This document shows, piece by piece, positions 3,085 through 21,727 of a stretch of DNA of 64,000 nt. Position 1 is the stretch's first letter; every line of letters starts with the position of its first letter. The notes beneath the pieces were generated by a model. The model was not told the DNA's origin. It worked only from the letters and a program-made list of their open reading frames with translations, and ran no database searches. Position numbers and translations under genes: made by a program. Source of the DNA: Thermoplasmatota archaeon (GTDB lineage Archaea; Thermoplasmatota; JAKEGO01); assembly GCA_028279595.1 (NCBI GenBank), contig JANQNK010000003.1:176568-240567 (forward strand), given 5' to 3'.

Positions 3085-3085
3085 G

Positions 3086-5380: not shown

Positions 5381-5385
5381 TTGAA

Positions 5386-6174
5386 TCACCTCAGCACGTT
5401 CTTGTCTTGAAGACGTTCGATAAGCGTGCCGGCGGCCTCCTTTGCCGTCCCCTCTATGAGCTCGCCCTCCCTCTTCGGGACCATGACGAAGGTCTTCTTG
5501 ACCTGGGTAGGCGAACCCTTCAGCCCGATCTTGGCCTCGTCGGCGTTCAGGTCGGCGGCGGTCATCTTCCCGACCTCCTTGTCCCTGTACGCGGTGACGA
5601 TGCCCTTGATGGTCGGATAGCGCGGCTCGTTCAGATCGCCGATCACAGTAATGACGGCGGGCAGCGACGTCTCGAGCGTCTCGTGTCCGTCCTCGAGGGC
5701 GCGCTCGATGACCGCCTTGTCGCCCGATATCTCGACCTTGCGTGCGTAGGTCACCTGTGGGAGCTCCAGCGACTCCGCGAGCTGGGGTCCGACCTGGGCC
5801 GTGTCCCCGTCGATGGCCTGCCTGCCGCATATGATGAGATCGAACTTCCCGATGGCGTTCACCGCCCTTGCGATGGAGTAGGCCGTTGCCCAGGTGTCTG
5901 ATCCTGCAAAGGCTCTGTCGGACAGAAGGATCGCCTCGTCCGCACCCATCGCGAGGGACTCCCTCAGCGCGTCGTCGGCCTGCGGTGGACCCATGGTCAG
6001 GATTGTTATCTTCCCGCCCTCCTTCTCGCGGATCCGGAGCGCCTCCTCGATGGCGTGCTTGTCATCGGGGTTGATGATGCTCGGCACACCCTCGCGGATG
6101 AGCGTTCCCTTCTTCTCGTCGATCCTTACATCGTTCGTGTCTGGCACCTGTTTTATACAGACGATAATATCCAT
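5386..6174 (-). CDS. etfB: Electron transfer flavoprotein beta subunit
   Basis: MDIIVCIKQVPDTNDVRID... is a typical EtfB N-terminus. The stop lies 5 nt before the etfA start. Confidence 0.85.
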   Translation of the reverse strand: MDIIVCIKQVPDTNDVRIDEKKGTLIREGVPSIINPDDKHAIEEALRIREKEGGKITILTMGPPQADDALRESLAMGADEAILLSDRAFAGSDTWATAYSIARAVNAIGKFDLIICGRQAIDGDTAQVGPQLAESLELPQVTYARKVEISGDKAVIERALEDGHETLETSLPAVITVIGDLNEPRYPTIKGIVTAYRDKEVGKMTAADLNADEAKIGLKGSPTQVKKTFVMVPKREGELIEGTAKEAAGTLIERLQDKNVLR

Positions 6175-6178
6175 TCGA

Positions 6179-7318: not shown

Positions 7319-7456
7319 CTAGTGCACTCTCCAGATGTCTGGTCGAGCAATTGGATTTCCTTACTTAAACGTTTTCGTGACAGAGGGGTCCGACGGTCCC
7401 CTGACCAATCGATGAACGTCGTTACGGAATGCGTAACTGAGATGGACCACTTGCGA

Positions 7457-8830
7457 CTATCTCAGAGTCCTCCTCCGGCGTTTCGCTGATATCGGGATGA
7501 CCACCGCCATGGACAGGAATATCAGTCCTGCCTCGAATCCAGGCGTGCCCTCGTCCTCATCCTCGGCCTCCTTCGGCGAGATGTATGCCGTGTACACGGG
7601 ATCGTGCTCGATCCGATAGCCGTTCCATTCGGGGAATGCCACGGCGTACCAGAAGTGACCGAACTTGAACGCATGGGCCGCGAAGAACATGAACACCTGG
7701 GGATTCTTGAACAGGGTCTGGTAGTAATCCGTCATCGCGTAGCAGGTCAGGGTGAACAGTCCGAGCGAGAACCCTGCCTGCCATCTTACGATCCCGAACT
7801 CCTCGTTCCTTGGAGCGACGAGCATGTTGTACGCCTGGATGTCGTCGCCTATCGTGGTGCCGTTGGTCTCGTCGATGAGGTCGTACGTTCCCCTGTAACC
7901 GACCTTGAACGCCCTCTCGTTGCTTTCTCCTACCTTGACCTCGAGGTCGTCCGTGACGTCGGTGATGTTCCCGTCGAGCTCGTTCCCGTCGAAGTGATGG
8001 AGTGCGAACTTCGATGTGAAGACGCTCACGTAGTGGACGACGGATATGCCCATCGTGTCGGGGATATCGGTGACATTGAGCTTGAATGGGATTCCGAGGA
8101 AGACCCCCCATAGTTCGGTGACCTGGCCGATCTCGTAGAACGTCTCCGCCCTGATGGTGTCCTCGCCGAAGGTCACCTCGTAGGTGATGGTCAGTTCACT
8201 GAACTTGACGATGTATCCGGTGGCGAGCCAGATCGACAGCTGGTTGGGAACGGCGACGGCGTAGAGGTTCCGGTATCTCATCCCGAAGGTGTACGTGTGT
8301 CCGTCCTTGTCGATGTCTATGACGTCGACCTCCGGTGCGTAGGTCTCGTTCGTCTCGTTGCCGATGACCTCACCGATGCCGAACGGGATCGCGAACAGTG
8401 TCTCCTCGTTCCCGGGGTCCGGAAGCATGTTCTGACCGGGTCCGGTGCCGTTGTACGAGTCGTTGTAGGTCATCAGGAACGCCAGGACGGCGCCCAGGAA
8501 GACCTCGTGGCCGCCGGGGGTCCAGTAATGCATCCCAAAGAGCTGGTACGGCAATGTGGAGACGTTGTTGTCCTTGGTGTAATCGCGGAACGCGATCAGG
8601 AACGCCTGTGCGTCCCCCTCCTGGACGTAGGACATCGCGAACCTCGCGTCCCCTCCGTCGTGTTCGATCGTTATGTTGTCGTTCGTCCACATGTCCTCCT
8701 CGAAGGTGTGTCCGAGGAGCTCCTCCTCCTGACCCTTCTCCCATTCCGTCGGCACGACGGCCGATACATTGGGTGTCAGGAGCATTCCAACTACGATAAC
8801 TATCACGTACGTTGTGACCCATCCCTTCAT
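7457..8830 (-). CDS. Secreted protein with a PGF-CTERM archaeosortase sorting signal
   Basis: Signal peptide MKGWVTTYVIVIVVGMLLTPNVSA, from the ATG at 8830 with a GGTGG Shine-Dalgarno upstream. C-terminus: acidic linker, then PGFEAGLIFLSMAVVIPISAKRRRR. Confidence 0.6.
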   Translation of the reverse strand: MKGWVTTYVIVIVVGMLLTPNVSAVVPTEWEKGQEEELLGHTFEEDMWTNDNITIEHDGGDARFAMSYVQEGDAQAFLIAFRDYTKDNNVSTLPYQLFGMHYWTPGGHEVFLGAVLAFLMTYNDSYNGTGPGQNMLPDPGNEETLFAIPFGIGEVIGNETNETYAPEVDVIDIDKDGHTYTFGMRYRNLYAVAVPNQLSIWLATGYIVKFSELTITYEVTFGEDTIRAETFYEIGQVTELWGVFLGIPFKLNVTDIPDTMGISVVHYVSVFTSKFALHHFDGNELDGNITDVTDDLEVKVGESNERAFKVGYRGTYDLIDETNGTTIGDDIQAYNMLVAPRNEEFGIVRWQAGFSLGLFTLTCYAMTDYYQTLFKNPQVFMFFAAHAFKFGHFWYAVAFPEWNGYRIEHDPVYTAYISPKEAEDEDEGTPGFEAGLIFLSMAVVIPISAKRRRRTLR

Positions 8831-9045
8831 GGTTCCCACCTAAGTAAACATCGGACTCAGGGTATTTAATCGTACTGAAAACCGGATATGTCCCTCCCAC
8901 CAGCCCCCCTCCCCAACCTAGAATGACACTCAGGACCTAGCGATGGGTCCATTAAGAAAACCATAACTGACCCCCCGCCGGGTCCCCCCCAACGTAGAAT
9001 GACAGCCAGAATTGGACGACAGACCGAGGAACCAGGTCGAGTACC

Positions 9046-9435
9046 TTATGCTAGGTTGTCCAACATCATCTCGACGGCGGTGCCGATCTCGTCGCCCTCG
9101 TCTGAGGACCAGAAGCGTGAGAGAGACGTCTCGATGCCACCGCGGACGTTGGCGGTCACAAGGACATGGACCCACTTCGGCTTTACCGCGTCAATGAAAT
9201 CATCGACGACCGTGTTCAGGAGGTCCTCGTGTATCGTGCGTTCGTCCAGGAACTCGACGAAGTAGAGCTTCAGGGACTTGAGCTCGACCAGGGCCGCCTC
9301 GGGCTCATAGGTGATCATCACCCTGTAGTAGTCCGGAAGCCCGGTCATCGGACAGCGGGAGACGACCTCCGCGGTGTCCAACCTGATGGCGTATCCCTTG
9401 TCTTCGTTGGTGTTCTCGAGGGTCTCCAATGTCAT
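9046..9435 (-). CDS. queF: QueF family protein (preQ0 reductase or archaeal QueF-like enzyme)
   Basis: 129 aa with a catalytic Cys motif (SRCPMTGLPD) and the QueF motif ELKSLKLYF. Confidence 0.8.
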   Translation of the reverse strand: MTLETLENTNEDKGYAIRLDTAEVVSRCPMTGLPDYYRVMITYEPEAALVELKSLKLYFVEFLDERTIHEDLLNTVVDDFIDAVKPKWVHVLVTANVRGGIETSLSRFWSSDEGDEIGTAVEMMLDNLA

Positions 9436-9763
9436 CGATGTTCCTCCCCGCGGGATGATGAGGTCGGTCTCGATATAAATAAATCACCGCCGTGGGCCCG
9501 CAAATGTTCAAAGCGTTACAGATATGGTTATATACCCATCATTCCGAGGTAAGTTCGAGGGCGGGAAACGGCCCGGTCCAGCACTTATCGATCCTCGCGT
9601 TCCGGGCTCCATCCCCTTTTCAAGATCCCGCTCTCACAGACGCCACCCAATGGGGGCGTGGGAGCGGTCCTTCGCCGGGGTCCCGAAATGACCGGCATGC
9701 AGGACCACACCCCATACACCTCCTGCGCCCCCCAACCCATTTCCGTTACATTTCTGCAAAACG

Positions 9764-9771
9764 TTTAATAT
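9764..9771 (+). promoter_or_regulatory. TATA-box-like element upstream of the DUF835 gene
   Basis: TTTAATAT lies about 30 nt upstream of the ATG at 9802, consistent with a short-leader archaeal promoter. Confidence 0.3.
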
Positions 9772-9801
9772 CGTCCGTTTGATAGTGTCCATGGTGCTCG
9801 T

Positions 9802-10320
9802 ATGAACGGTGAAGAAGCCCCTGGACAGGAATCCCGACAGCGCAACATCATGGACCTCGAGCTGAAGAAGGGCGTATCATATCTCATTGTAGATCACATC
9901 GAGGACGCATACACCCTCTTCAAACGCTATTCCAGGGAAGCGAAGGGTATGTGCGTCACGAGGACCCCTCCCGAGGAGGTCGAACATATTTACGACGTCC
10001 ACAACGTCACCTTCAAGTGGCTGACGCACCTGAAGGTCGACCAGGGCGTCCGACCGACCGAGCTCCACATCCTCTTTCCCTCGATCCAGCAGTTCATGGA
10101 GGGTGGAGACTTCATCATAATCCTCGACGGTCTCGAGTACCTGAAGGTGCACAATGGCTTCGACGAGATATTGAAGTTCATCCAGTCCTTCAGGGACCAC
10201 GTCTACATGAAGAAGGGACTTCTTCTCGTGCCGGTCTCCCATGATGCGCTATCACCCATGGAGATATCCCTGATTCGGAGGGACCTCATGCCGATCGAGG
10301 ACCTCCTCAAGAAGCTCTAG
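9802..10320 (+). CDS. Stand-alone DUF835 domain protein
   Basis: Aligns by eye with the C-terminal module of the 875-aa protein at 50782..53409 (YLIVD...CVTRTPPE...FKWLT...IILDGLEYLKVHNGFDEILKFIQSFRD). Confidence 0.6.
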   Translation: MNGEEAPGQESRQRNIMDLELKKGVSYLIVDHIEDAYTLFKRYSREAKGMCVTRTPPEEVEHIYDVHNVTFKWLTHLKVDQGVRPTELHILFPSIQQFMEGGDFIIILDGLEYLKVHNGFDEILKFIQSFRDHVYMKKGLLLVPVSHDALSPMEISLIRRDLMPIEDLLKKL

Positions 10321-11264
10321 TTCTCCGTTTCCGGAACGGCCAGCTCCTCATCTGGAGCCTTGAGCAGGAGCCTGAGGTCGTCCAGGAGTCCGAGGTAGAC
10401 GCCGTCGATCAGGAAAACCTTCGCCTTCTCAAGGTCGACGTAACCGTTCCGGAGGAACGGCCCGAGGAGGTCGTCGTCCTCGTTTACCGGAGATCCCGAC
10501 CCGTACTCGCTGAATGCGGGCATTACGATGGCTTCGCCGTCAGGCTTCTCACCATACCTCTTCAGGAACGGCTCCTCGGCGATCGGTGCGCGCATCCAGC
10601 AGACCTCCGACATTCGGGTACCGAGGTCGTCCCTGAACGCTACGGAAGGGTGCTGATGCCCCATTACAACGACCTTCTGTTTCGCCACCTCAGGAGTAGG
10701 ATATGAATGACCGTGGAACAGACCAACTCCCTCAATCACGATACCTGTCGCCGGATGGACCGTGATAAGTTCGGGATAGTCGGCCCAGCCCGGGACCAGT
10801 TTGGACAACGATCCGTCGTGGTTACCTGGGACAATGTGTACGGGAACGATGTCTGCGACCGCCTTGAGGAAGTTCGGGACCTCGTCGGCCTCCTGCTGCG
10901 CTATGGCCCCTATAGAGTTCTTGACATCTCCGAGAAGGACGATCTCCTCGGCGCCGGTGTCCTCCACGAGCGATTTGATTCGTCTCAGAAGTCCCTTTGT
11001 CTGGCTAGGTAAAGTGACACCTGCGTCATGGTACTCGGCCTCGATACCGACGTGGAGGTCCGCTATCACCAGGACCTTCCTCTTGCCGTCGATGAGGAGC
11101 GCAGCCTCGTCGGGCACGGGTTCTACGTTCACGAGCCACCCAAAGCGGACATGTGTAAAAAGGGTATCCCGAAGCCGAACGAACTGATAGCAGGAGCACT
11201 GGGACCGGGCGCTTAAGACCACGTTGACCTCCATGAATAACGTCCGGGCCAAGTGCTCCCTCAT
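10317..11264 (-). CDS. Metallophosphoesterase (calcineurin-like; MJ0037-type)
   Basis: Motifs VLVIADLHVG, LLGDVKN, VPGNHD and GHQHP. The true start may be internal (for example the ATG at 11234). Confidence 0.75.
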   Translation of the reverse strand: MREHLARTLFMEVNVVLSARSQCSCYQFVRLRDTLFTHVRFGWLVNVEPVPDEAALLIDGKRKVLVIADLHVGIEAEYHDAGVTLPSQTKGLLRRIKSLVEDTGAEEIVLLGDVKNSIGAIAQQEADEVPNFLKAVADIVPVHIVPGNHDGSLSKLVPGWADYPELITVHPATGIVIEGVGLFHGHSYPTPEVAKQKVVVMGHQHPSVAFRDDLGTRMSEVCWMRAPIAEEPFLKRYGEKPDGEAIVMPAFSEYGSGSPVNEDDDLLGPFLRNGYVDLEKAKVFLIDGVYLGLLDDLRLLLKAPDEELAVPETEN

Positions 11265-11291
11265 CCGGTTATGAAAATTGATAATTGGAGA

Positions 11292-11319
11292 CCACCCCCG
11301 GGCCCATCCCCGGGGGTGG
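11292..11319 (-). terminator. Strong GC hairpin abutting the left att repeat; probable relic terminator of the tRNA before integration
   Basis: CCACCCCCGGG / CCCGGGGGTGG forms an 11-bp stem with a 6-nt loop. It ends 1 nt from the 18-bp repeat. Confidence 0.4.
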
Positions 11320-11320
11320 A

Positions 11321-11338
11321 TGGTGGGAGCACTGGGAT
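11321..11338. repeat. Left att direct repeat (partial copy of the tRNA-Trp 3' end)
   Basis: TGGTGGGAGCACTGGGAT is identical to 20009..20026. Confidence 0.85.
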
Positions 11339-11387
11339 GAGAAGCCCACCGAGTACCTTGAGAATCTGAATCAATACGGCCAATTCA

Positions 11388-11406
11388 TTCGAGAATTGTT
11401 CTCGAA
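11388..11406. promoter_or_regulatory. Perfect palindrome (candidate operator) at the left end of the element
   Basis: TTCGAGAA-TTG-TTCTCGAA, about 50 nt upstream of the first small ORF. Confidence 0.3.
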
Positions 11407-11453
11407 CCGTCCTCCGAGGATCGGTCAAACCGCTTAGTTAGGGTTGATGTACA

Positions 11454-11582
11454 ATGGAATCGGAACTGAGTGATGAGGTTAACGAGAGGAAAGAACTAAA
11501 GAAGCACGCCGAGGACATCGAAAAGGCATTCGACTACAATCCCGAATGGAACCACCTGAAAAAGAAGAAGAAGAAGAGGTGA
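11454..11582 (+). CDS. Small basic/coiled hypothetical protein (42 aa)
   Basis: Below the ORF-track cutoff. MESELSDEVNERKELKKHAEDIEKAFDYNPEWNHLKKKKKKR. It ends 4 nt before the next ATG. Confidence 0.25.
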   Translation: MESELSDEVNERKELKKHAEDIEKAFDYNPEWNHLKKKKKKR

Positions 11583-11586
11583 ATTT

Positions 11587-11973
11587 ATGGAATCATCGGG
11601 GACTGAACTTCCTGAATTCTCTCATTTCGACGTTGCACCTCACGGCATACCCATTCGAGTTGACATTCCAAAGGACGGTGTCTATGTCGGCCGTGTTCTC
11701 GAATCGGAACTCCTTAATCCGAATAAGGAACCGGTGAACTCCGTCTTCTATCATGTGAAGATCCTCACGGTAGAGTGTGAGTGTGAACCTTCTCTTACCG
11801 TTTACGATATTCCTCGACTCCGCTGTCCAATAGACGAGCAGGAAATCGTGTCCATTGGAAACGTCCTTGTCATCAATGTATTCCTCATGAGTCAACGGAT
11901 GGTTTTGACTCCTTTATCCGAAATCAAGCAGTCATTGAACATGATCAAAGAGGTCCAGGGGGCTTTGTTTTGA
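11587..11973 (+). CDS. Hypothetical protein (element cargo)
   Basis: 128 aa. The ATG is preceded by GAGGTGA at SD distance. Preferred over the antisense ORF 11593..11895. Confidence 0.4.
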   Translation: MESSGTELPEFSHFDVAPHGIPIRVDIPKDGVYVGRVLESELLNPNKEPVNSVFYHVKILTVECECEPSLTVYDIPRLRCPIDEQEIVSIGNVLVINVFLMSQRMVLTPLSEIKQSLNMIKEVQGALF

Positions 11974-12380
11974 AGTTGTCACCTGAGGAGACGATCACTC
12001 ATACGCAAGCTGGCTCGTCACGTCTCCTTCAAGAGCGGAACGTCCCCATCGATACAGTCCTCCCCCCGGACCTCGTCCTCCTCACAGTGTTCGTTGAATG
12101 CAAGAACGGAATGGCCGTCAGAGACTATGATGTAGTAGTGACGGGTGAGGACGAAGTCTTCCGAGGTAGAACCGATAAGACCGGCCACATCGACTTCTAT
12201 GTCCCTGACGGTCAAGAGATGATGATCGTCAACGGGGATGACGTTTACGAACTGTACATGGAAGGCAACGGATATGTAACGCTTACGTCTCCGACGGACC
12301 TACCGCCGAAAAGACCACCTTCAGCGTCACTTCTCGAATCATTGCTATTGCCACAGGGTAGTCAACGTCCTTCCACTTAG
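11970..12380 (+). CDS. Hypothetical protein (element cargo)
   Basis: 136 aa. The TTG start overlaps the previous stop by 4 nt. The middle part looks beta-sandwich-like and the tail is Pro-rich. Confidence 0.35.
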   Translation: MKLSPEETITHTQAGSSRLLQERNVPIDTVLPPDLVLLTVFVECKNGMAVRDYDVVVTGEDEVFRGRTDKTGHIDFYVPDGQEMMIVNGDDVYELYMEGNGYVTLTSPTDLPPKRPPSASLLESLLLPQGSQRPST

Positions 12381-13139
12381 TGTCACGCTTTTCGCATGTC
12401 GTCCGGGGTATTGGTGATTCCGATCCTCTCTCATCTTCTCCCGGGCCCCCGGACGGCATGTATTATAAATTCGATAAGTAATTCCAATATCCCAACTGAT
12501 GAATGAGATAATACTATGACAAATGTAGAAGGATACTATTCATCTATTTTGTAATTGGTTCAGTTACGATTATAATAATTCGTATTCCCAATTGAAGGAT
12601 ATGAATAGGATCCATATTTAGTTGTTCTAATGTAGATGATGAGTTTAACCGGGAATAAGAAAATTGGTAGAGATGTACCTCACCAGTAACTAACGACATC
12701 GAAGACGATGGTATACTTGAACATTATTTTGTAACTGACAATGGTTACACATATGTTATTAAACCATATGGTGGATATATATGGAAGGTACGTACCAAGG
12801 GTAATTTCAGAGGTACTGGGTGCTTTGTTTTTTCTTGCTAGGGCATGGTAAGTTAATATTTGATAATCTGATGATGATAACAATAATTATACACCATTGA
12901 TGCAAAGAAAGGTGTTATATTATATACATTAAAACAACTGTAAGAAACTGTTCTATTAACCAATATCCATTGGAATGAATAATTAAAAATAGAAGTATAA
13001 TAAATTGGTTTCAATCCTATAGTACTGTTATGGTATTGTTTTATTATTAGAAGATGTCGCTATCTAATGTATATTTATGGTCATATACTATTTATACCTG
13101 TAAATTCGCTTCTATTTTGTTAATGAATTGAAGTGGTCA

Positions 13140-13373
13140 ATGGTCTTACGACGTGATAGTATGGGCTCTAGAAACCTAAAAAAGATTAGCGTGAAAAAGA
13201 TCAAATTTTATTCTTATTTATTGTTATATTTGATTGGATGGGTATTTTTTATCGTGGGTACAGTTCATTTAATATTGTGTTACGACCAAAAAGACTTTCG
13301 GACTCCATTTATTCTAATTATAGGTATAAATTTAATTTTCTTGAGTTTATACCATATTGACTCGGATTACTAG
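13140..13373 (+). CDS. Small two-TM membrane protein
   Basis: An ATG-started version of the track ORF. Two hydrophobic helices: YLLLYLIGWVFFIVGTVHLIL and PFILIIGINLIFLSLY. Confidence 0.3.
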   Translation: MVLRRDSMGSRNLKKISVKKIKFYSYLLLYLIGWVFFIVGTVHLILCYDQKDFRTPFILIIGINLIFLSLYHIDSDY

Positions 13374-13379
13374 TGTTAA

Positions 13380-13700
13380 CCGATAAGGCTATCCAAGTAT
13401 CGGGGCGTTGTTTTACACGTGTACCCGTCTCACACGTGTAACAACAACGTAGGCGGGAGATGAACGGTAACGTTCATCGAGGGGGCTATTCCCTATACTG
13501 TTTTTCAATTCTAACCGTAATAGGTATTGTCTCCGTGGATCTACCGTCGCACCCTCCCGTTAGGACGACAGAAGGAGGGGCGGTCTATTCTTTTCTACCT
13601 CGATCTTCTCTGTATTCTCTATGCCCCTCCCGGCGTCCGTGGGGAGGGGTGCCGACCGGGTCGCCGCAGGCGACCCCTATGAATCTAATTTAAGGTCGGC
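13380..13700. other. GC-rich, hairpin-dense non-coding patch inside AT-rich cargo (candidate structured RNA or origin/regulatory region)
   Basis: At least 5 stable stem-loops, including GATGAACG-GTAA-CGTTCATC and nested GCCGACC[GGGTCGCC-GCA-GGCGACCC]...GGTCGGC. Confidence 0.3.
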
Positions 13701-13884
13701 AGGTTGAGAGGAATTAGAATGTTTGAAAATGAAAACATTAGCTATTCCTATGAAATTCTTAAGAAAACGTCCGAAAAGGGGTTGTGAGAACTCTTTGGGG
13801 ATTTTCATTTTATAAATACTTTGGATACAATGGTCCTAAAGTTATATGTAGTATACAAGTATATACACTAAAAGTAGTGGTAAA

Positions 13885-14175
13885 ATGGGCGATTACACGA
13901 CCGTAAAGATCAGCAAGGATACTCTTCGATTAATGGACCGCGTTCAATCCTTTTTCACCTATCGTTACGGTAAGAAATTGACCAAGGATCAAGTCCTTCG
14001 TACAGCTCTTCTCAAGTTCGATTATCGACTAGCTAGTAATCTTCATCAAACGGACCTCTCTTTCAACGAATATATCAAGATGCTCGAGGACGACGTCGGC
14101 TTGTCTTCGTCCGAAGGAGAATGGAAGACCTTCAAGGGCGTGAAAGTGTGGTGCGGTCCCGTCAATAAACGTTAA
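13885..14175 (+). CDS. Ribbon-helix-helix-like small DNA-binding protein
   Basis: N-terminus TTVKISKDTLRLMDRV...KLTKDQVLRTALLKF has a beta-strand/helix/helix pattern. A TATA-like GTATATAC lies about 25 nt upstream. Confidence 0.4.
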   Translation: MGDYTTVKISKDTLRLMDRVQSFFTYRYGKKLTKDQVLRTALLKFDYRLASNLHQTDLSFNEYIKMLEDDVGLSSSEGEWKTFKGVKVWCGPVNKR

Positions 14176-14366
14176 TACTGTTTTACTGAAATTGGAGTTG
14201 GGGGTCCCCCGGTAATAACATGAGATCATTTCGGAGGTAAGTACCGGATCGGACACGGTCCCTTCGTAATTCACTGGGATTACAAATAAAAACCTACCAC
14301 GTAAAAAAATGGTCAATGGAGATATAAGGGATGGTGGACTATTTGAAAATAGCGGAGTGGTGATAT

Positions 14367-15674
14367 ATGAAGGGAATAATCACTAAATGGATTGTTATTC
14401 AAATAATCGTTTTATTAATTATTAGTTCGGTGACATATTTATACGGGAAAGAGTTGAAGAAAGAGGAAGAAGAAATAGTGGGTCGGTATAAAACTAGAAA
14501 TCCTAACGATATTATATTCGATAAGACTATGACATATACATTATATCAATCAATGATTGGTGATTTACATATTGAGAATTCTCTGGATCAATTTCCGTTT
14601 ACGCCAGAAAATGAAAATCAGACAAGATATGATAACAATAATTATACAAATTCGTTTTATGCAGATTGTCAAGTAACAACAAATTCGTCACATGTAACAG
14701 ATGAAAACTTAGTATGGATGTTTCCAGATCCATGGGATGATGGAATGCGACCCATGGGGTCGGTTCTATTAACAACATATGTGAATATTACACATGATTG
14801 TCATCTTAATGATGCGTTATTCAGTTTCTGGTTAACAGCTCGGTGTGATGATGAAGAATATAAAAATAGCCAAATCGATTTTAAAATGAAATCTTCAATA
14901 TTATTACCTGATAAATTGATGACAGATCGATTAAGAGATACTAGGGGTCGGATGATGTTTTCTCCAAATGAGACAATTCGTGTTGGAGAGCAGAAGCAAA
15001 TTATCTTTGATTTTAATTTCATAAATCCTTCGACATGGAGATTAAATACGGGTGATAAATTATTATTTCAGTTACAATATTGGATTATGAATCCAATAAT
15101 ATTAGATCCAATTCAAAACGTGTCAGAGGAAAATGTACCGGTGAAATTATTTTTAATTTATGGTGGTGTTAATCCATCTTATTATAATATTTCATTAGAA
15201 AGGGGTATTGGATTAATTCATGAGATTGATTATTCATTTAATGAACCAAACGAATATCGATATTGTTTTATTCCTCCAATTAATCATTCGATTAATAAGG
15301 TAACATTAGTTATTGAGGGATTAAATCTAGAATATATTTCTTTTTATTCCTCCTTGTCAATGAATAATGGTGATAGACTAAACAAAAGTTGGGTTTATAT
15401 TTATTTACCATATAATTACCATCCCTGTTTAACTCTTCGGTTTCAATTAGAAATGATTAATGGTGAAATTGGATCTTTTAAAACGTATCTTGATGGTGAA
15501 CCCGAACAAAGGTATGTAAGGGAAGGTAAGGAGGGAATTCATGATGATGTTATGTTTTTGTTAAATATTGTGATTCCGGTATTTTCGTCTGTAATATTAA
15601 TTCAAATAGCGTATAGATATCAAAAGAAAAAGGATTCTCAGAAGTCAGTAAAGTCAGAAAACTTTCATGATTAA
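14367..15674 (+). CDS. Membrane-anchored (N- and C-terminal TM) putative surface glycoprotein, ORFan
   Basis: 435 aa with an N-terminal hydrophobic helix, many NxS/T sequons, and a C-terminal TM (VIPVFSSVILIQIAY) followed by basic residues. Confidence 0.5.
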   Translation: MKGIITKWIVIQIIVLLIISSVTYLYGKELKKEEEEIVGRYKTRNPNDIIFDKTMTYTLYQSMIGDLHIENSLDQFPFTPENENQTRYDNNNYTNSFYADCQVTTNSSHVTDENLVWMFPDPWDDGMRPMGSVLLTTYVNITHDCHLNDALFSFWLTARCDDEEYKNSQIDFKMKSSILLPDKLMTDRLRDTRGRMMFSPNETIRVGEQKQIIFDFNFINPSTWRLNTGDKLLFQLQYWIMNPIILDPIQNVSEENVPVKLFLIYGGVNPSYYNISLERGIGLIHEIDYSFNEPNEYRYCFIPPINHSINKVTLVIEGLNLEYISFYSSLSMNNGDRLNKSWVYIYLPYNYHPCLTLRFQLEMINGEIGSFKTYLDGEPEQRYVREGKEGIHDDVMFLLNIVIPVFSSVILIQIAYRYQKKKDSQKSVKSENFHD

Positions 15675-15979
15675 TGACGAGTGACGTAGCGATATTTATG
15701 TATTGTATATCCCGCTAATGTGTTTAATGTGAAGGAAAAACCTTCGCAAACTCCTACTCTAGCGTTAAAAAACGTAAGAAAAGGGGTCATCACAACAATT
15801 GGTGTTTGAGAAATTATTTATAGAATAAACGTATAGTATAATCCATGTCAGTGAAAATGGAATTTCAGTTTGAATTATCGAAGAATATCGCTGATATTGA
15901 TCAAATATTAATGAATATTGAAGCAAGTGATGATGAATTATTCGATTTACTGTATTTATAGGTAAATGACGGTGTATTA

Positions 15980-16549
15980 ATGGCTCATAAAAGAGGTAAG
16001 GGAAAGAAGAAAGGTGGGAAGATTGAACCATTTCCTGAAGCATTAAAACGAGTTGAGGTATTAGCTCGAAGACTTAATCGAAAGGTTGAACGTGCCGTAG
16101 CAATACAGACTACTCCTGAAGAGGAAAAGGAATTCCATTCAATACTTGTTGAACATGGAAAATTTGCAATACCATTTCGTTGTGAAGGTGAAGTGGTTAT
16201 TTGTTTCATGCCTATTGGTATCGAAAAAGAAGTTAAAGAAAAATTTAAAGGAGTACCGTATGAAAAGCGGAGACGGTTATATTTTCACTTATTACGAGAT
16301 CTACAATTGAGTAACAGAGTTGGATATACAATAAAACCTCTTGGGATTAAGTTGATTGATCAAATTGATGAAGTATATTTAGAATGTAGCAGTATTATTG
16401 AGGATACGAGTGGTGAATCTGCAAATAGACTTGCAGATATTATTCAAGAAATGGTCATTATGATGTTAAAGGCTGGGAAATATTTTGGTGGTGAAGAAGA
16501 AAAAAGTGATTCGAAACCGGATACTTTTACGGTAATGTATCATCAATAA
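15980..16549 (+). CDS. Hypothetical protein with a basic N-terminus, co-oriented partner of the cyclase-like gene
   Basis: 189 aa, starting MAHKRGKGKKKGGK. It ends 15 nt before the next ATG. Confidence 0.45.
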   Translation: MAHKRGKGKKKGGKIEPFPEALKRVEVLARRLNRKVERAVAIQTTPEEEKEFHSILVEHGKFAIPFRCEGEVVICFMPIGIEKEVKEKFKGVPYEKRRRLYFHLLRDLQLSNRVGYTIKPLGIKLIDQIDEVYLECSSIIEDTSGESANRLADIIQEMVIMMLKAGKYFGGEEEKSDSKPDTFTVMYHQ

Positions 16550-16564
16550 TAGGTTGAGGATAAG

Positions 16565-17341
16565 ATGGAAAAACGGTTTGTGGCATTTTTCGATGTGTTG
16601 GGTTTTTCCGATCAAATTCAGCGGACAAGTGCAAAAAATGTGATGAAAGAGTATTCGAAATTTATTCAGGACTTATCCAAATCGGAAGGTTCGGAACTTA
16701 ATGCGTTTATTAGTTCAGATTCAATTATTGTATATACTGAGGATTTATCTGTTGAATCATTTAAATCTATAGTGGATTATTCGGGTAGGTTGTTTGTTAG
16801 AGCTTTTCGTAATCATTTTCCATTACGTGGTGCAATAGATGGTGGAGAATTCGAAATTAGTGATGATCGTCTAGTATATGTTGGTCGTGCATTAATTCGG
16901 GCATATAAAGCTGCTTCATCTCAAAAATTGTCAGGTGTGATTTTAACACCCAATTGTGAAATGGTCTTAGAATCATCGGAATATGCTGGAATTCTCGAAG
17001 GAATGGATCGATCATTGAAACTAATTCAAAGGTCAATACAGATAAAAACTTCTGGTGTCTCTGGTTCATCTGACCGTGAAGGAATTCGGTATTGTGTTAA
17101 TTGGGTACATGTTTTACACAGTGGTCGAGGCAGTCGGAAGGAACAGATGACGAAAAAGGAATTTTACTCAAAATTTGTACCAAAACGTAAGGCTGATTTT
17201 ATTTTTGAATTAGATGTTGAAGAAAAAATCGAAAATACATATGGATTTTACGATTATACATATAAAATATTATCTCAGACTCGGTTTTTACCTCGTGGTA
17301 AAAGGGAAATTTGGCGTAGAACTATCAAGAAATCAAAATAG
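16565..17341 (+). CDS. Class III nucleotidyl cyclase-like protein (remote, motif-level)
   Basis: FFDVLGFS (cf. FADIVGFT), FISSDSIIVY (cf. IGDAYMA), LRGAIDGGEF (cf. RIGIHTGPV), VGRALIRAYKAASSQKLSGVILT (cf. GDTVNLASRLES..PGQILVS). Both metal-binding Asp positions are present. Confidence 0.5.
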   Translation: MEKRFVAFFDVLGFSDQIQRTSAKNVMKEYSKFIQDLSKSEGSELNAFISSDSIIVYTEDLSVESFKSIVDYSGRLFVRAFRNHFPLRGAIDGGEFEISDDRLVYVGRALIRAYKAASSQKLSGVILTPNCEMVLESSEYAGILEGMDRSLKLIQRSIQIKTSGVSGSSDREGIRYCVNWVHVLHSGRGSRKEQMTKKEFYSKFVPKRKADFIFELDVEEKIENTYGFYDYTYKILSQTRFLPRGKREIWRRTIKKSK

Positions 17342-17525
17342 ACTGTTTTCAATGATGTATAATTGTGGTTGTATGGAATTCAATGACGCATAACTATCGA
17401 TGTGCGTCAAGATCGTTATGAATATGAGATGGGCTGATGTTTACATGTAGGTATCTGCGTTTGGTGAAATCCGAGAAAATTTTATGGATTAACGAAATTA
17501 TGAATGTGAATGTGAATATGAGGCG

Positions 17526-17924
17526 TCATAATTCCAATTTTGCTTGCGGTGATAATGGATCAGGGAATGAGTTTAGAATGAATTGGTGGAGTTTGTATGA
17601 TAAGAAAATCGTGTAACATGATGACACACCGATTACAGGTAATGTAATATAAGGATTGGATGAGAATGAAATTGCGATTGTGTTTAATGTTATTATTATT
17701 ACTCCAATTGGAAGTACGAGTAATACTTTTTTCAGTTCAGTTCGAACTGATGTTGCTACTGTGATGGCTTGAGGGGGTGTTGGTATAGATTCGAAATAGG
17801 GGCGTAGTAAATTCTTCCAATTATCTACGTATCTTACTAGACCTATGAATACTAAACCGATTAAAGCTGCTAATGATTGCGCAAATGTAGAAAGAATCCA
17901 TATTGATTGTTCTTCGGTTACCAT
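17526..17924 (-). CDS. Small multi-TM membrane protein
   Basis: 132 aa with 3-4 hydrophobic helices. Convergent with the cyclase-like gene. Confidence 0.45.
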   Translation of the reverse strand: MVTEEQSIWILSTFAQSLAALIGLVFIGLVRYVDNWKNLLRPYFESIPTPPQAITVATSVRTELKKVLLVLPIGVIIITLNTIAISFSSNPYITLPVIGVSSCYTIFLSYKLHQFILNSFPDPLSPQAKLEL

Positions 17925-17980
17925 GAATAATGAGTGGGTGACTAATGTAAAAAAGTTTGTAAAAAAATAGTCAATGCCGA

Positions 17981-18622
17981 TTATAAAAAGTTGATGTTAT
18001 CATATTTGAATGTTTCAACCCAATCCGGAAAATTTTCAAAACATTGGTGCAAATCAAAATGATAATCTTTGAAGATGTCAGAGTGAGTTTCGGGTAGTGG
18101 TAATATATTACGCATTTCAAAGACAAATAAATCTAGAGGGTAAATGTCGGTTGGGAATAAAAATCCAGGTCCTGTATTGGGTATGAAATTTCCCGCGGGA
18201 TATCGTGGAATTTCATAAAAGGGGTTAAATCTGTGGCAAATCGTGCTGATTCGTGAAGAATGAAGAAATGGATAATTTCGATTCTTATCGAGTAATCTAC
18301 ACTGGTTGAGTAATTCCTCAAGATCGTGTATTCTATTCGGAATCTCATTATGATTTGCGTATTTAATGAATGATTTTAGGTATAATTCAATACATTGTTG
18401 AGCTTCAAAAAAACTGTAGGGATAAATGTGGTGATAGAACAGGATTCGGGATAAGAAATAATGAAGGTCTGCTGAAGAAATGAAAATGGTGTAACTCATG
18501 TTTTTAAGTTTGGTGTCGAAATCAGGATCTTTAATACGTTTCGATATGTTAACAAATTCTTTATTTTTTAAAGTTGTTAGTTCGTCTACGTACATCTTTA
18601 CATCATCTAATAGTGATTTCAT
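17981..18622 (-). CDS. HEPN domain protein (classical PF05168-like)
   Basis: AQQCIELYLKSFIKYANHNEIPNRIHDLEELL matches the HEPN helix pair (A.Q..EK.LKA....HDL..L). FYEIPRYPAGNF matches the conserved YYIPTRYP motif. Confidence 0.65.
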   Translation of the reverse strand: MKSLLDDVKMYVDELTTLKNKEFVNISKRIKDPDFDTKLKNMSYTIFISSADLHYFLSRILFYHHIYPYSFFEAQQCIELYLKSFIKYANHNEIPNRIHDLEELLNQCRLLDKNRNYPFLHSSRISTICHRFNPFYEIPRYPAGNFIPNTGPGFLFPTDIYPLDLFVFEMRNILPLPETHSDIFKDYHFDLHQCFENFPDWVETFKYDNINFL

Positions 18623-18716
18623 TATTCATCGGTATAATGGAGTAACATTGTATAAAAATGTGTAATAAAAATGGTTAATGTGCACTATATATGTGGAGAT
18701 ATGTGGTGAATTGTGA

Positions 18717-18887
18717 CTAGGGGGGTAGTGGTTTGTAGCGGTCTTCAAGGATATTTAGATAATATCTTGTTGCCTCTTTGATGATATCTGCTCTGTTGTT
18801 GTAACCAGCATCTGGATAGTCTGAAAGGAAGTTGTCAATTCGGTTAAGTAGGTTGTTTGGTAAACTAACAGAAGTATGTCGGGGCAT
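18717..18887 (-). CDS. Ribbon-helix-helix (CopG/Arc-like) protein, 56 aa
   Basis: Below the track cutoff. MPRHTSVSLPNNLLNRIDNFLSDYPDAGYNNRADIIKEATRYYLNILEDRYKPLPP. Divergent from the integrase across a 100-bp TATA-rich spacer. Confidence 0.55.
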   Translation of the reverse strand: MPRHTSVSLPNNLLNRIDNFLSDYPDAGYNNRADIIKEATRYYLNILEDRYKPLPP

Positions 18888-18987
18888 GTCTCAAAATGGG
18901 TCTAAGAACTATATAAAACATGTAAATATTTAAATGGAAATATGGCTGTAGATATATTTATATATGCATATTTGTATTGTGGTGTAG

Positions 18988-19971
18988 ATGCCCACCGATG
19001 TGGAGGTCGTGAAAACATCTGAAATTTCCGTGTTAGAGCGCTGGATACAGGAGATGCGAGCTCGGAACGTAGGCGATTATACAATTAAGCGATATCGTGC
19101 GGTTATCGAGCCATCACTTTCCTTCGCCTTGGATGAGGGTTATCCTGACCCTATTGATTGGGATATCATTCAAGTTGGATCAATTCTTGATGGTATAGGT
19201 CGCAACTCCTGGAAGATCCGTGTGATGAAGCTGTTCTTAAAGTGGGTCGGGAACGACGTCCTTGTGAAGAACAGGATACTTCATCCGAAGCATCAACATC
19301 TTGGTCGATGGCTAAATCAGAACGATTGTCAAAAGCTTGTTACTCTTGCCCAAACCCCACTTGAACGAGTCGTCATCCACTTTATGATGGAGTTGGGACT
19401 ACGACGAACTGATCTCTTACGTCTACGTGTGTTAGATATCGATTTCAGTTGCTCCCGCGTTAACGTACGAGGTAAAGGCTTTCATGACGGCAAGCTACGT
19501 GTTCTCCCATTCCATCCTTGTTCACAAGAGGTAATCCGGTCATATCTCGAATACCGCGAATACGTTTTCCAAGTTGCACGTCAACGAAGTATTACTCAAC
19601 CCGAGGATCCTGAAAATCTCCTCGTATACGAAAGAGGCGGAGAAGTCATAGGATACAAGAGCACCGCCATCGATAATCTCATTCAACGACTAGCGTCACG
19701 TCTAGGATTTCATTTCAGTTCTCACGATCTTCGGAGAACCTTCGGTCGCAACCTTTACTATGCGACAAATCGTGATATCGCAGTAGTTTCTTACGCTCTC
19801 GGTCATAGTGATATCCGGACCACGATGAAGTACCTGGGTCTAGGATATGATGACCTTCAAAAAGGCATGGTAGACATGGCGAAGATGTGGGAATCGCAAC
19901 CACATATTGCCGCCGAAGTGGTACTAAAACGGCGAAATGGAGGACCTAGCAATGAACCCAATTCAGGCTGA
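18988..19971 (+). CDS. int: Tyrosine recombinase / integrase (XerC/D-like phage integrase family)
   Basis: Catalytic signature residues in LRRTDLLRLRV (R), HDLRRTFG (H-x-x-R) and LGHSDIRTTMKY (H...Y). The stop lies 38 nt from the right att repeat. Confidence 0.85.
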   Translation: MPTDVEVVKTSEISVLERWIQEMRARNVGDYTIKRYRAVIEPSLSFALDEGYPDPIDWDIIQVGSILDGIGRNSWKIRVMKLFLKWVGNDVLVKNRILHPKHQHLGRWLNQNDCQKLVTLAQTPLERVVIHFMMELGLRRTDLLRLRVLDIDFSCSRVNVRGKGFHDGKLRVLPFHPCSQEVIRSYLEYREYVFQVARQRSITQPEDPENLLVYERGGEVIGYKSTAIDNLIQRLASRLGFHFSSHDLRRTFGRNLYYATNRDIAVVSYALGHSDIRTTMKYLGLGYDDLQKGMVDMAKMWESQPHIAAEVVLKRRNGGPSNEPNSG

Positions 19972-20008
19972 AACAACTGAAAAACCCCGCAAAAGCGGGG
20001 AAAACGAC

Positions 20009-20026
20009 TGGTGGGAGCACTGGGAT
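20009..20026. repeat. Right att direct repeat (within the tRNA-Trp 3' end)
   Basis: TGGTGGGAGCACTGGGAT. Its reverse complement ATCCCAGTGCTCCCACCA covers part of the T-stem, the acceptor 3' strand, the discriminator and CCA. Confidence 0.85.
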
Positions 20027-20069
20027 TCGAACCCAGATCAGCGGGTTTCGCCTATCAGGCAAAGTGGCT

Positions 20070-20133
20070 TTGGGGTCGTTGCTCCAGTTAGTCATCACGA
20101 CATCAGCAAACCCGTTGCAACTCATTTCCCCAA
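20070..20133 (-). ncRNA. Box C/D guide RNA module embedded in the tRNA-Trp intron
   Basis: Terminal stem TTGGGG/CCCCAA. Canonical internal CTGA (D') and GTGATGA (C'); degenerate AAUGAGU (C) and ACGA (D). The guides CGGGTTT and ACTGGAGC are complementary to positions 38-42 and 31-37 of the same tRNA. Confidence 0.55.
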
Positions 20134-20232
20134 TGCGGGTAACTGGAGCCCGCGAGGATGCCAGGTTACCCCATGCTCCCACATGCTCGAGAGCATCCTC
20201 CGGGTCCCGTCGGAGCGGTCGGTCCACTGGGT

Positions 20233-20340
20233 TCAAGCCTTGCGCTGACGCAGCGCCTTCTGCCGGCGCCGCATGCGCTTCTTGCGCCATTTCCAGCGCA
20301 TGTTGCCCTTCTTCTTCCAGCTTCTCGAGCCTCTCTTCAT
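20233..20340 (-). CDS. rpl41e: Ribosomal protein L41e (35 aa micro-gene)
   Basis: Below the track cutoff. MKRGSRSWKKKGNMRWKWRKKRMRRRQKALRQRKA matches the archaeal/eukaryotic L41e RWKWRKKRMRR core. It ends 52 nt upstream of the tRNA-Trp 5' end. Confidence 0.7.
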   Translation of the reverse strand: MKRGSRSWKKKGNMRWKWRKKRMRRRQKALRQRKA

Positions 20341-20382
20341 GAGCCACTCTCCGTTGACTGCGCTGGAATAACTGGTTCTCCT

Positions 20383-20390
20383 ATTTAAAG
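20383..20390 (-). promoter_or_regulatory. TATA box for the rpl41e(-tRNA-Trp) transcription unit
   Basis: The minus strand reads CTTTAAATAGG about 45 nt upstream of the rpl41e ATG. No TATA-like element is visible between rpl41e and the tRNA. Confidence 0.4.
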
Positions 20391-20480
20391 GTTGATAGGT
20401 TGGTTCAGTCTCTCAAAAGTGTGTTGGTATGTACCTTTCAATGTGGGAACGTGTATATATCCAAAATCACATTCCGTGGT

Positions 20481-21638
20481 ATGAAGATATGGGTGGCCAC
20501 CTTAGTTTTCATATTAGTGCTCAGTGGATATGGGGCGCGAGCATCTTTACCGGTTCAACAGCTTGAAGTCAGTAATGTGTATAGGACTGCAAATCCTGAT
20601 GTATTCAATGATACGATCGTCTGGGAAAGAGATGATCCTTGGCATGACCGCATAATTCAATCATACGATATTCGGTCTAACACCAAATCTATCGTAACCA
20701 ATCAAACCAGATTCTATTCGAACAATCTTAGCTGTGACCTTAGAGGAAAAGCACGTAATCCCACTGCACTCGAAGATGCGATCATATGGCAGGATGAAAT
20801 ATTCTATGATTGGTCACAGACGATCGATGGGATTGTATATTTGAATCTTACTAATGGACAGCTGTCATTAGTATCAAATGCAACGGAATATTCCGTCAAT
20901 CCAGACGCTTATGGAGACATCATCGCATGGGAATCAGGCTGGGATCAGAAGAATATCACATATCATCATATCTCAACTAACGAAACCATTAAAATCGATA
21001 GAAAATACAACCAAATCACACCGCAGGTGTATCAGAATTATCTTGTCTGGAATGAATATGATGGGGTCCCCTCTGTCGGTTGGACTAGGATCTACGTGAA
21101 GAATTTAATCACAAGCGAAATCGTCCAAGTAGGTGGAGATGGTGTAAAGTCCCCCTCCATTTATGGTGACAAAATTGTCTACGAGCATTGGGTATTTCCA
21201 GATGATGAAGGTGATGAACTCATTCGAGACATATACATGCATAATCTAACAAGTGGAATTACAATCCCCATCTGCACCGATCCTGGTGATCAATTGATCC
21301 CTAAGATCTATGAGGATCAAATTGTTTGGATTGACAATAATGATGGCGGATACCATATCGTATCTCACAATTTACAAACCGATGAAACTCTTAAGGTATG
21401 TACAGATCCCGAATTCGATCGGTACCATGTCGACATTCATGGAAATGTAGTCGTATGGAGCGGTCATAATGAGGACGAATCAAGGTTGTTTTATTCGAAT
21501 CTTTCATGGGAGCCGATTCCCGATCCGCGAATAATCGAAACTATCGATAATGGATCCATAACCTCTGAAGTGATCATTGGATCATTGATTGTGCTGGGTA
21601 TCATCGGACTTGTAGGTTTATGGAAGCAAAAGTCCTGA
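20481..21638 (+). CDS. Secreted, C-terminally anchored 7-bladed beta-propeller repeat protein (TolB/PD40-like)
   Basis: Signal peptide MKIWVATLVFILVLSGYGARA. Seven repeats of the type P.(I/V)(Y/F)(G/E)D.IVW...D(I/R)Y..NL.T. C-terminal TM VIIGSLIVLGIIGLVGLWKQK. Low GC. Confidence 0.6.
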   Translation: MKIWVATLVFILVLSGYGARASLPVQQLEVSNVYRTANPDVFNDTIVWERDDPWHDRIIQSYDIRSNTKSIVTNQTRFYSNNLSCDLRGKARNPTALEDAIIWQDEIFYDWSQTIDGIVYLNLTNGQLSLVSNATEYSVNPDAYGDIIAWESGWDQKNITYHHISTNETIKIDRKYNQITPQVYQNYLVWNEYDGVPSVGWTRIYVKNLITSEIVQVGGDGVKSPSIYGDKIVYEHWVFPDDEGDELIRDIYMHNLTSGITIPICTDPGDQLIPKIYEDQIVWIDNNDGGYHIVSHNLQTDETLKVCTDPEFDRYHVDIHGNVVVWSGHNEDESRLFYSNLSWEPIPDPRIIETIDNGSITSEVIIGSLIVLGIIGLVGLWKQKS

Positions 21639-21654
21639 TAGACTTACGAATGAT

Positions 21655-21696
21655 CAAAAAAGAAAAAAAAGAAAGAGTGAGCGCCTCGCGGCGCTC
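21655..21696 (-). terminator. Hairpin plus oligo-T terminator downstream of ssb (also closes the convergent gene)
   Basis: GAGCGCC-TCGC-GGCGCTC (21679..21696) is followed on the minus strand by CTTTCTTTTTTTTCTTTTTT. Confidence 0.5.
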
Positions 21697-21727
21697 GATT
21701 GTCTGTTGGGTGTGTCACAACCGGTTC

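Follow-up and report, generated by a model that had tools for sequence, protein, structure and literature searches.

Two types of archaeal integrative elements differ in the fate of their integrase gene (int). In SSV-type elements the attachment (att) site attP lies within int and the gene is split into int(N) and int(C), while in She's type II ('pNOB8-type') int is left unsplit on integration (PMC8371274). The cryptic integrated elements (CIE) described in Thaumarchaeota (Krupovic et al. 2019) possess an integrase, lack viral, casposon and conjugative signatures and, in many cases, have no identifiable replication protein (Rep) (PMC6563490). They range in size from 2.6 to 98 kb, frequently reside in tRNA genes and carry RHH/wHTH regulators together with toxin-like and defence-like cargo (PMC6563490). 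Here we analyzed 64,000 nucleotides of DNA from a Thermoplasmatota archaeon (assembly GCA_028279595.1, contig JANQNK010000003.1, positions 176,568 to 240,567 of the forward strand; hereafter, the window), in which a stretch of ~8.67 kb (11339-20008 together with one of the 18-bp att copies) adjoins the 3' end of a tRNA-Trp gene. This stretch is very probably a cryptic integrated mobile element with its own classical, non-partitioned integrase.

Since int is not split, the element belongs to type II and not to the SSV-type (suicidal) elements. It shares with type II the intact int after integration, the att site outside the int open reading frame (ORF) and a tRNA target (PMC8371274). It should be mentioned that the name 'pNOB8-type', proposed in a first-pass annotation made from the sequence of the window, is used here in the behavioural sense only. 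The nearest curated or solved relatives of the integrase are XerA-like. Unlike pNOB8-type elements, the element has no conjugative plasmid backbone.

By its gene content the element fits the CIE class. It is an integrase-bearing multigene insert with att repeats, its size is in the range of CIE, and its cargo includes RHH and defence-like genes. As in the definition of CIE, an integrase was found while searches for capsid, terminase, portal, Cas1 and VirB4/VirD4-like ATPases were negative, these searches having been made on divergent orphan proteins. It differs from the described CIE in its host phylum, Thermoplasmatota, and in its cargo, which is almost wholly orphan and in which no genes in common with other elements were detected.

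Insertion at the 3' end of the tRNA-Trp gene

The element is bounded by an exact 18-bp direct repeat, TGGTGGGAGCACTGGGAT, already noticed in the first-pass annotation. It occurs at two sites of the window (Table 1), with no further copies when up to two mismatches were tolerated, and none of 100 dinucleotide-preserving shuffles contained at least two matches to it. As the adjoining bases differ between the two copies, the att identity is exactly 18 bp. A 10-mer, CACTGGGATT, at position 14272 was dismissed as a chance occurrence.

The right copy constitutes the last 18 nt of a complete tRNA-Trp gene, as had been proposed; the earlier description needs correction in that the gene lies on the minus strand and contains a 96-nt intron. 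ARAGORN with introns allowed placed this intron after position 37, and the spliced product of 76 nt forms a canonical cloverleaf. Because of the box C/D-like intron, the gene was missed by default ARAGORN and by Rfam at the gathering threshold, which reported zero tRNAs across the window. In an Rfam e-value scan the tRNA was misaligned (18 bits) and a spurious match to isrK appeared, and it was intron-aware ARAGORN that settled the gene.

Inside the intron, a weak match to the Rfam C/D-box family sR40 was detected at 20074-20129. The minus strand of the intron carries the motifs AUGAG, CUGA and GUGAUGA, and its guide stretches are complementary to the anticodon loop (AACUGGAGC to GCUCCAGUU) and to the region of position 39 (CGGGUUU to AAACCCG). 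It resembles the methylation-guide intron of the Haloferax volcanii pre-tRNATrp. An intron of 92 nt is also kept in the syntenic contigs described below, L004, L005 and L006.

The terminator-like hairpin with a run of five T next to the tRNA is element-borne and takes the place of the host post-tRNA hairpin, CCACCCCCGGG...CCCGGGGGTGG, which now adjoins the distal att copy.

The integrase and the flank proteins had verbatim matches on one contig of 313 kb in NCBI and in the Logan assemblies made from SRR20820740, and the named homologues of the flank proteins belong to Thermoplasmata/Thermoplasmatota metagenome-assembled genomes (MAGs). Homologues of the flank metallophosphoesterase with 86% identity were found on the JGI contigs L004 and L005 and on the ENA contig L006, all three of which are syntenic with the window at a nucleotide identity of ~79%. 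The common gene order comprises peptidase S8, beta-helix proteins, an MscS channel, a CBS protein, an OB-fold single-stranded DNA-binding protein (SSB) and a 35-aa Arg/Lys-rich ORF, followed by tRNA-Trp, metallophosphoesterase, DUF835, QueF, acyl-CoA dehydrogenase and electron transfer flavoprotein (ETF).

In L004, L005 and L006, tRNA-Trp passes directly into the sequence found to the left of window position 11321. When the window flanks were joined, they aligned with L006 and L004 without a break across the junction of ...GTGCTCCCACCA with TCCACCCCCGG; one att copy is present there and the 8.7-kb insert is missing. The same empty junction was revealed in a further JGI contig, L094, with an SSB 89% identical to that of the window. 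Thus L006, L004/L005 and L094, which come from organisms with flanking proteins 86-89% identical to those of the window, contain a precise empty site, i.e., an unoccupied attB, and the 8.7 kb are inserted precisely between two copies of the tRNA 3' end. The proposal of the first-pass annotation that the left copy is a duplicated tRNA fragment (att) is thereby borne out.

Three Logan contigs of SRR20820740 are 100% identical to the window, and both att junctions are crossed by them (L002 corresponds to 4448-13703 and L001 to 13681-21715 of the window). A search of genome contigs with the flank phosphoesterase gave no match, so these contigs hold no representative of a close species. With a 26-mer of tRNA-Trp, 10 loci were retrieved from metagenomes, nine of them from unrelated organisms, and none had an integrase at tRNA-Trp.

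The integrase and its relatives

The integrase is intact, as claimed previously. Its 327 aa make up a full-length protein that aligns end to end with homologues of 310-350 aa, and residues R139/R140, K163, H246-x-x-R249, H273 and Y282 are invariant in an alignment of 20 homologues with 22-40% identity. The stop codon is located 38 nt ahead of the att core, which begins at 20009 and lies outside the ORF. PF00589 was the only Pfam family matched at E <= 0.01. The match to the phrog_1 integrase had an E-value of 1e-26, and the best PDB sequence match was T. acidophilum XerA (1e-13).

The protein is XerA-like yet not XerA, as it scored 106 bits against the NCBIfam XerA equivalog, for which the cut-off is 220 bits. 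A chromosomal XerA dimer resolvase was rejected on this score and because the gene lies within an insert missing from relatives. An integrase of the SSV (suicidal) type was rejected as well, since int is unsplit and the sole Pfam family reported was not Phage_integr_3 (PF16795). The integrase had no match in viral contigs, and its matches in phage and plasmid collections were just 27-33% identical to it.

Related integrases were collected from one genome per GTDB species with a 7-sequence alignment as the query; the 20-sequence alignment proved too diverse for this use. In total 80 loci (L013-L092) were found, nearly all of them in Methanomassiliicoccales or Thermoplasmata MAGs. They are similar to the integrase of the window in protein sequence (26-46% identity), in the catalytic residues and in the convergent orientation of int and tRNA: at 25 of the 80 loci a convergent tRNA gene is situated within -15 to +177 nt of the end of the int match. 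Within the 10 kb of upstream sequence covered, a second att copy was revealed at two loci only, L015 (5.1 kb, 15-nt repeat) and L027 (2.6 kb, 35-nt repeat). The regions upstream of 13 related integrases contained DNA methyltransferase, type ISP restriction-modification (R-M) enzyme, Mrr, DUF4143/AAA_14 and helicase families along with ordinary host genes; among the top 25 families listed for these regions there were no capsid, terminase, portal or conjugation families.

The element differs from this family in its target and in the end of its int gene. The tRNAs targeted by relatives are tRNA-Ala, -Pro, -Ile and -Gln. The int ORF of the closest ones terminates inside the tRNA gene, with an overlap of ~20 nt with tRNA-Ala or other tRNAs, whereas the element of the window is located at tRNA-Trp and its int ends ahead of att. 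In one relative, L007 (1187-1220), the C-terminus of the integrase, ...EIGGPNGI (stop), is specified by GGTGGACCGAACGGGATTTGA, which is complementary to the 3' end of tRNA-Ala. The tail of the window integrase (19934-19962), ...GGPSNEPNSG (stop), encoded by GGAGGACCTAGCAATGAACCC, resembles a decayed form of the tRNA-complement tail GGPNGI (stop). This GGPSNE tail has the appearance of a fossil att site that is no longer in use and would point to a past switch of att specificity from an Ala-type tRNA to tRNA-Trp.

It should be mentioned that in a Methanomassiliicoccales MAG (L008, 937-1030) the tRNA overlapped by int was called by ARAGORN as tRNA-Pyl(CTA). This call is doubtful, as the gene resembles a tRNA that is interrupted by an intron and whose acceptor arm is Ala-like.

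Gene content of the element

We predicted 13 ORFs in the element and scanned 10 of them with Pfam, PHROGs, NCBIfam and PADLOC. Only the integrase and the HEPN protein could be assigned to a Pfam family. In agreement with the first-pass annotation, which had recognised no capsid, replication initiator or conjugation gene, these scans revealed no capsid, packaging, replication or conjugation genes among the larger cargo ORFs. The location of the features is given in Table 1.

Table 1. Features of the integrated element and of its target gene (positions in the window; TM, transmembrane segment; ncRNA, non-coding RNA; ori, replication origin).
Feature	Position	Strand	GC (%)	Basis or remark
Degenerate third copy of tRNA-Trp 3' end	11186..11204			12-nt exact core GGAGCACTGGGA
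Distal att (attL in window orientation)	11321..11338			exact 18-bp duplicate of tRNA-Trp 3' end; fused directly to tRNA in relatives
Left segment of interior	11339-12460		49.6	
Left-end gene trio, 42 + 128 + 136 aa	11454..12380	+	~50	absent from empty sites
AT-rich stretch, poorly coding	12461..13384		29.4	holds one 81-aa two-TM ORF
ORF, 81 aa, two TM	13128-13373			in 29% GC stretch
Hairpin-packed G+C-rich non-coding island, 320 nt	13385..13705		53.3	candidate ori or ncRNA
AT-rich segment	13706-18987		33.8	
ORF, 96 aa	13885..14175	+		no family assigned
Orphan, 435 aa, type-I membrane glycoprotein architecture	14367..15674	+		N-terminal hydrophobic segment, C-terminal TM, 9 N-x-S/T sequons
ORF, 189 aa, directly upstream of cyclase-like gene	15980..16549	+		no matches
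Protein of predicted class III nucleotidyl-cyclase-like fold, 258 aa	16565..17341	+		phrog_23933 5e-8; no Pfam entry
Predicted membrane protein, 132 aa, two TM, downstream of HEPN gene	17526..17924	-		hydropathy; no family match
HEPN-domain protein, 213 aa	17981..18622	-		PF05168 4.3e-11, above cut-off
RHH-like protein, 56 aa, divergent from int, candidate regulator	18717..18887	-		NikR N-terminal 3.7e-5 (weak); RHH_1 0.046
Tyrosine recombinase (integrase), 327 aa, intact, convergent with tRNA	18988..19971	+	46.6	PF00589 6e-19
Terminator-like G+C hairpin + T5	19985..20000	-		best terminator-like site of region scan; directly downstream of tRNA 3' end
Proximal att	20009..20026			final 18 nt of tRNA-Trp, genomically encoded CCA within
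tRNA-Trp(CCA), target gene, intact	20009..20180	-		ARAGORN with introns allowed
tRNA-Trp exon 2	20009-20046	-		ARAGORN
tRNA-Trp intron, 96 nt, box C/D-like motifs	20047-20142	-		ARAGORN
tRNA-Trp exon 1	20143-20180	-		ARAGORN

Eight cargo proteins are present in a collection of 15 billion proteins, all of them as singleton clusters at 90% identity; the exact sequence of the 136-aa cargo protein is absent from this collection. When 12 cargo ORFs, together with a 412-aa ORF located outside the element, were compared by tblastn with the 80 related integrase loci, no matches were found. The 435-aa protein matched only itself among 1.84 billion representatives and had no match among phage records or in PDB.

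The RHH-like protein of 56 aa, which is weakly similar to the RHH N-terminus of NikR/CopG and whose gene is positioned upstream of the HEPN gene, may act as a regulator. A HEPN-MNT toxin-antitoxin system was considered and rejected: the HEPN protein was found, a nucleotidyltransferase was undetected, and the neighbours are the RHH-like protein and a membrane protein. Comparison of the HEPN protein and of the 136-aa protein with PDB gave nothing useful.

For the 258-aa protein, a class III nucleotidyl-cyclase fold is confidently predicted. Its sole profile match is phrog_23933, of unassigned function, and a PDB sequence search gave only a weak match to CyaB (E 1.1), so that a fold search was needed. 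The AlphaFold2 (AF2) model (pLDDT 86.8, pTM 0.86) was matched by Foldseek to the catalytic domains of class III adenylyl/guanylyl cyclases in PDB (E 2e-7, probability 1.0, TMt 0.6-0.69); the protein also matches viral cyclase/GGDEF proteins. We found 56 homologues, mostly bacterial and of ~245 aa, in which D10, S51-D52-S53 and R88-G89 are invariant. The family occurs chiefly in Bacteroidota-type bacteria and also in phages (phrog_23933). At loci L009-L012, homologues are neighboured by a DUF3427/PLD-helicase gene and elsewhere by genes for a YobI-ATPase and an SLFN_AlbA_2 protein, and these neighbourhoods are defence-island-like.

Pycsar-like cyclic-nucleotide defence uses class III-type cyclases and pairs the cyclase with an adjacent nucleotide-sensing effector. 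The 258-aa protein is similar to such cyclases in its modelled fold, in the conservation of both candidate metal-binding Asp residues and in the defence-type neighbourhoods of its homologues. It differs in that 38 members of the family, which also has no Pfam entry, gave no convincing PADLOC match, no recognisable effector binding cyclic nucleoside monophosphates is encoded next to it, and the gene beside the cyclase-like gene varies among the homologues. A system of the Pycsar/CBASS type was rejected, as there was neither a match to a defence model nor a recognisable effector. The adjacent 189-aa ORF yielded a single-sequence AF2 model with pLDDT 43.8, which was not used.

As a whole, the cargo, in which the RHH-like, HEPN and membrane-protein genes form a cluster, is accessory and probably of a defence- or addiction-like kind, and some of it may serve in defence.

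Integration and origin of the element

The mechanism of integration is a textbook one, and the element is an ordinary kind of mobile island. A circular form whose attP core has the same sequence as the final 18 nt of tRNA-Trp would meet the chromosomal attB in the tRNA-Trp gene, and the non-partitioned tyrosine integrase of the element would catalyse recombination between attP and attB. Crossover within the 18-bp identity would restore a complete tRNA, followed by the element-borne hairpin and T-run, and would leave a second copy of the tRNA 3' end at the distal border of the insert. As the repeats are perfect and int is intact, we infer that the element is competent for excision; it may pass through a circular intermediate and be mobile at present.

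Several observations weigh against a single, currently mobile element with accessory cargo. The predicted attP junction (32-mer) had zero matches in JGI metagenome contigs, and no branching occurs where the Logan contigs pass the two att sites. The mosaic GC content (50% / 30% / 47%) leaves open that the element is a composite of more than one acquisition. The element and its cargo proteins, singletons at 90% clustering, come from one genome and one sample only; as there was also no cargo homologue near the 80 integrases, no element family can be defined beyond the integrase. That replication and structural genes are absent was concluded from negative profile searches of very divergent orphans, eight of the 10 without Pfam family, and the sensitivity of these searches is limited. 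PADLOC gave no defence match for the cargo and thus lends no support to a defence role.

The GC content of the flanks is 58%, and the foreign composition of the interior is evident, both as stated in the first-pass annotation. The value of about 27% given there for the interior fits only its most AT-rich lines: the 8,670-bp interior has 37.6% GC and is mosaic, with a core of 29-34% (Table 1). Throughout the AT-rich core (12461-18987) the plus strand has a GC skew of +0.2 to +0.37, with genes of both orientations and no matching AT skew, and in the region of the minus-strand genes (17526-18887) the skew is +0.26 to +0.37. Being independent of gene orientation, it reflects an asymmetry of the DNA strands and not of the coding strand.

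The G+C-rich island between the two AT-rich parts is packed with hairpins, with minimum free energy (MFE) z-scores of -4.6 and -4.2, one for each strand. It includes near-perfect palindromes such as GTTGTTTTACACGTGT...ACACGTGTAACAACAAC in surrounding DNA of ~30% GC. The island has no Rfam family, and its 42-nt hairpin had no match in viral contigs. It was also observed that the Logan contigs break at its right edge (13681-13703). The AT-rich stretch, the palindrome island and the GC skew are compatible with a former episomal replicon.

Several explanations other than a cryptic integrated element with accessory cargo were considered. It is unlikely that the core of the element (12.5-19 kb) represents an unseen lineage of small viruses or plasmids of uncultivated Thermoplasmatota, and/or that the 258-aa protein represents an undescribed single-gene nucleotide-signalling defence family that archaeal islands have in common with phages and bacterial defence islands. 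An unseen virus or plasmid would be in keeping with the orphan glycoprotein and the small membrane proteins, with the putative origin and its many palindromes, and with a GC skew that follows the DNA strand.

It is quite improbable that the element is an integrated small plasmid, with an origin at 12461-13705 and one of the orphan ORFs coding for the initiator. In favour of it, a 0.9-kb, poorly coding stretch of 29% GC abuts the 320-nt island of strong palindromes and the skew follows the DNA strand (+0.26 to +0.37); moreover, many cryptic integrated elements of archaea are suspected plasmids (PMC6563490). However, no Rep, primase, helicase or MCM was found, a tandem-repeat search of the AT-rich region for iterons gave nothing convincing, and neither an episomal contig nor an attP junction was detected. 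The Walker A motif [AG]x4GK[ST], searched in six frames, occurs in no real ORF of the element, so no P-loop NTPase was seen.

The most interesting rival is a small membrane-containing provirus, pleolipovirus-like or of another pleomorphic or spindle type, in which the 435-aa protein would act as spike or fusogen and the small two-TM proteins would belong to the virion membrane or capsid. With its 8.7 kb the element falls in the range of pleolipoviruses (7-17 kb), which possess integrases and have tRNA genes as their targets, and proviruses of the VP4-like kind were reported from Methanomassiliicoccales (PMC10919331). The tyrosine integrase, the tRNA att site and the gene of a membrane-anchored glycoprotein are shared with the pleolipovirus-like proviruses (PMC10919331), the glycoprotein having an N-terminal hydrophobic segment, a C-terminal TM and nine sequons; two TM each are present in the 81-aa and 132-aa proteins, and the strand-specific GC skew could mirror a single-stranded DNA or rolling-circle phase. 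Nevertheless, such a provirus is very unlikely. Neither VP4-like homology nor an ORF6-like gene was detectable, the 435-aa protein and the other candidate structural genes had no match in PHROGs, Pfam or phage collections, and neither a rolling-circle endonuclease nor another Rep was found. The NTPase that is a hallmark of the morphogenetic module is missing, as no P-loop motif occurs in the element. The related integrase loci, in turn, show R-M, helicase and host genes, with no virion families among the top 25 listed.

Deletion of ancestral host DNA in the relatives, between two chance repeats, would leave the same precise gap, but this is hardly credible given that the repeat is a tRNA 3' end, that the insert contains an intact integrase of a tRNA-targeting family and has a GC content 20 points under that of the host, and that the empty state is found in three diverged lineages. 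A chimera of assembly or binning at the GC boundaries, which the first-pass annotation had named as a possible pitfall and which the MAG source, the abrupt GC shifts and the Logan contig break within the element might suggest, is highly improbable, because contigs of SRR20820740 span both att junctions with 100% identity and the junctions fall exactly at a tRNA-derived direct repeat beside an integrase.

Read as a cryptic integrated element, the locus provides a cleanly delimited mobile element from a lineage of archaea that has been sampled poorly: its integrase is intact, both att sites are present and the site is empty in relatives. Moreover, it draws attention to an abundant integrase family of Thermoplasmatota for which tRNA 3' ends are a systematic target. 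For genetic tools, such small elements are candidate backbones. Two further leads are the unannotated cyclase-fold family in defence-type neighbourhoods and the apparent switch of att specificity, with a fossil tRNA-like att in the 3' end of int.

Possible traces of other insertions in the vicinity

A degenerate third copy of the tRNA-Trp 3' end sits 116 nt beyond the distal att (Table 1). When the attL copy is taken together with the two bases ahead of it, 16 of 19 nt agree. Relatives have also conserved this copy: the corresponding site of L004/L005 (L004 9114-9131) is GTCCCAGTGCTCCCACCA, identical in 17 of 18 positions. There it is followed by a lineage-specific insertion of 0.83 kb (L004 9125-9958) encoding a 256-aa membrane protein. 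The third copy is a probable relic of an earlier integration, and together with the insertion in L004 it suggests repeated integration and decay at tRNA-Trp.

On the other side of the tRNA, just upstream of it, a 35-aa Arg/Lys-rich ORF, MKRGSRSWKKKGNMRWKWRKKRMRRRQKALRQRKA, is located at 20240-20347 (minus strand). Conserved counterparts are present in L004, L006 and L094. The ORF had no Pfam match; we take it to be similar to ribosomal protein eL41.

A second lineage-specific segment of low GC content (41%) was observed at 20400-21647. It is a 1.25-kb replacement between the terminator of the SSB gene and the promoter of the 35-aa ORF, where L004 and L094 have ~45 nt, and it contains no integrase and no repeats. 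It encodes the above-mentioned 412-aa protein, which is membrane-anchored and has 10 N-x-S/T sequons and repeated W-containing motifs. This protein was compared with the 435-aa membrane glycoprotein of the element, and no homology was found.

Finally, a GC dip (48% at 3001-4000) coincides with an ORF for a 329-aa membrane protein at 3086-4075. In the syntenic contig L004 its place is occupied by a 65-aa DUF6485 gene, and this region may be another lineage-specific replacement.

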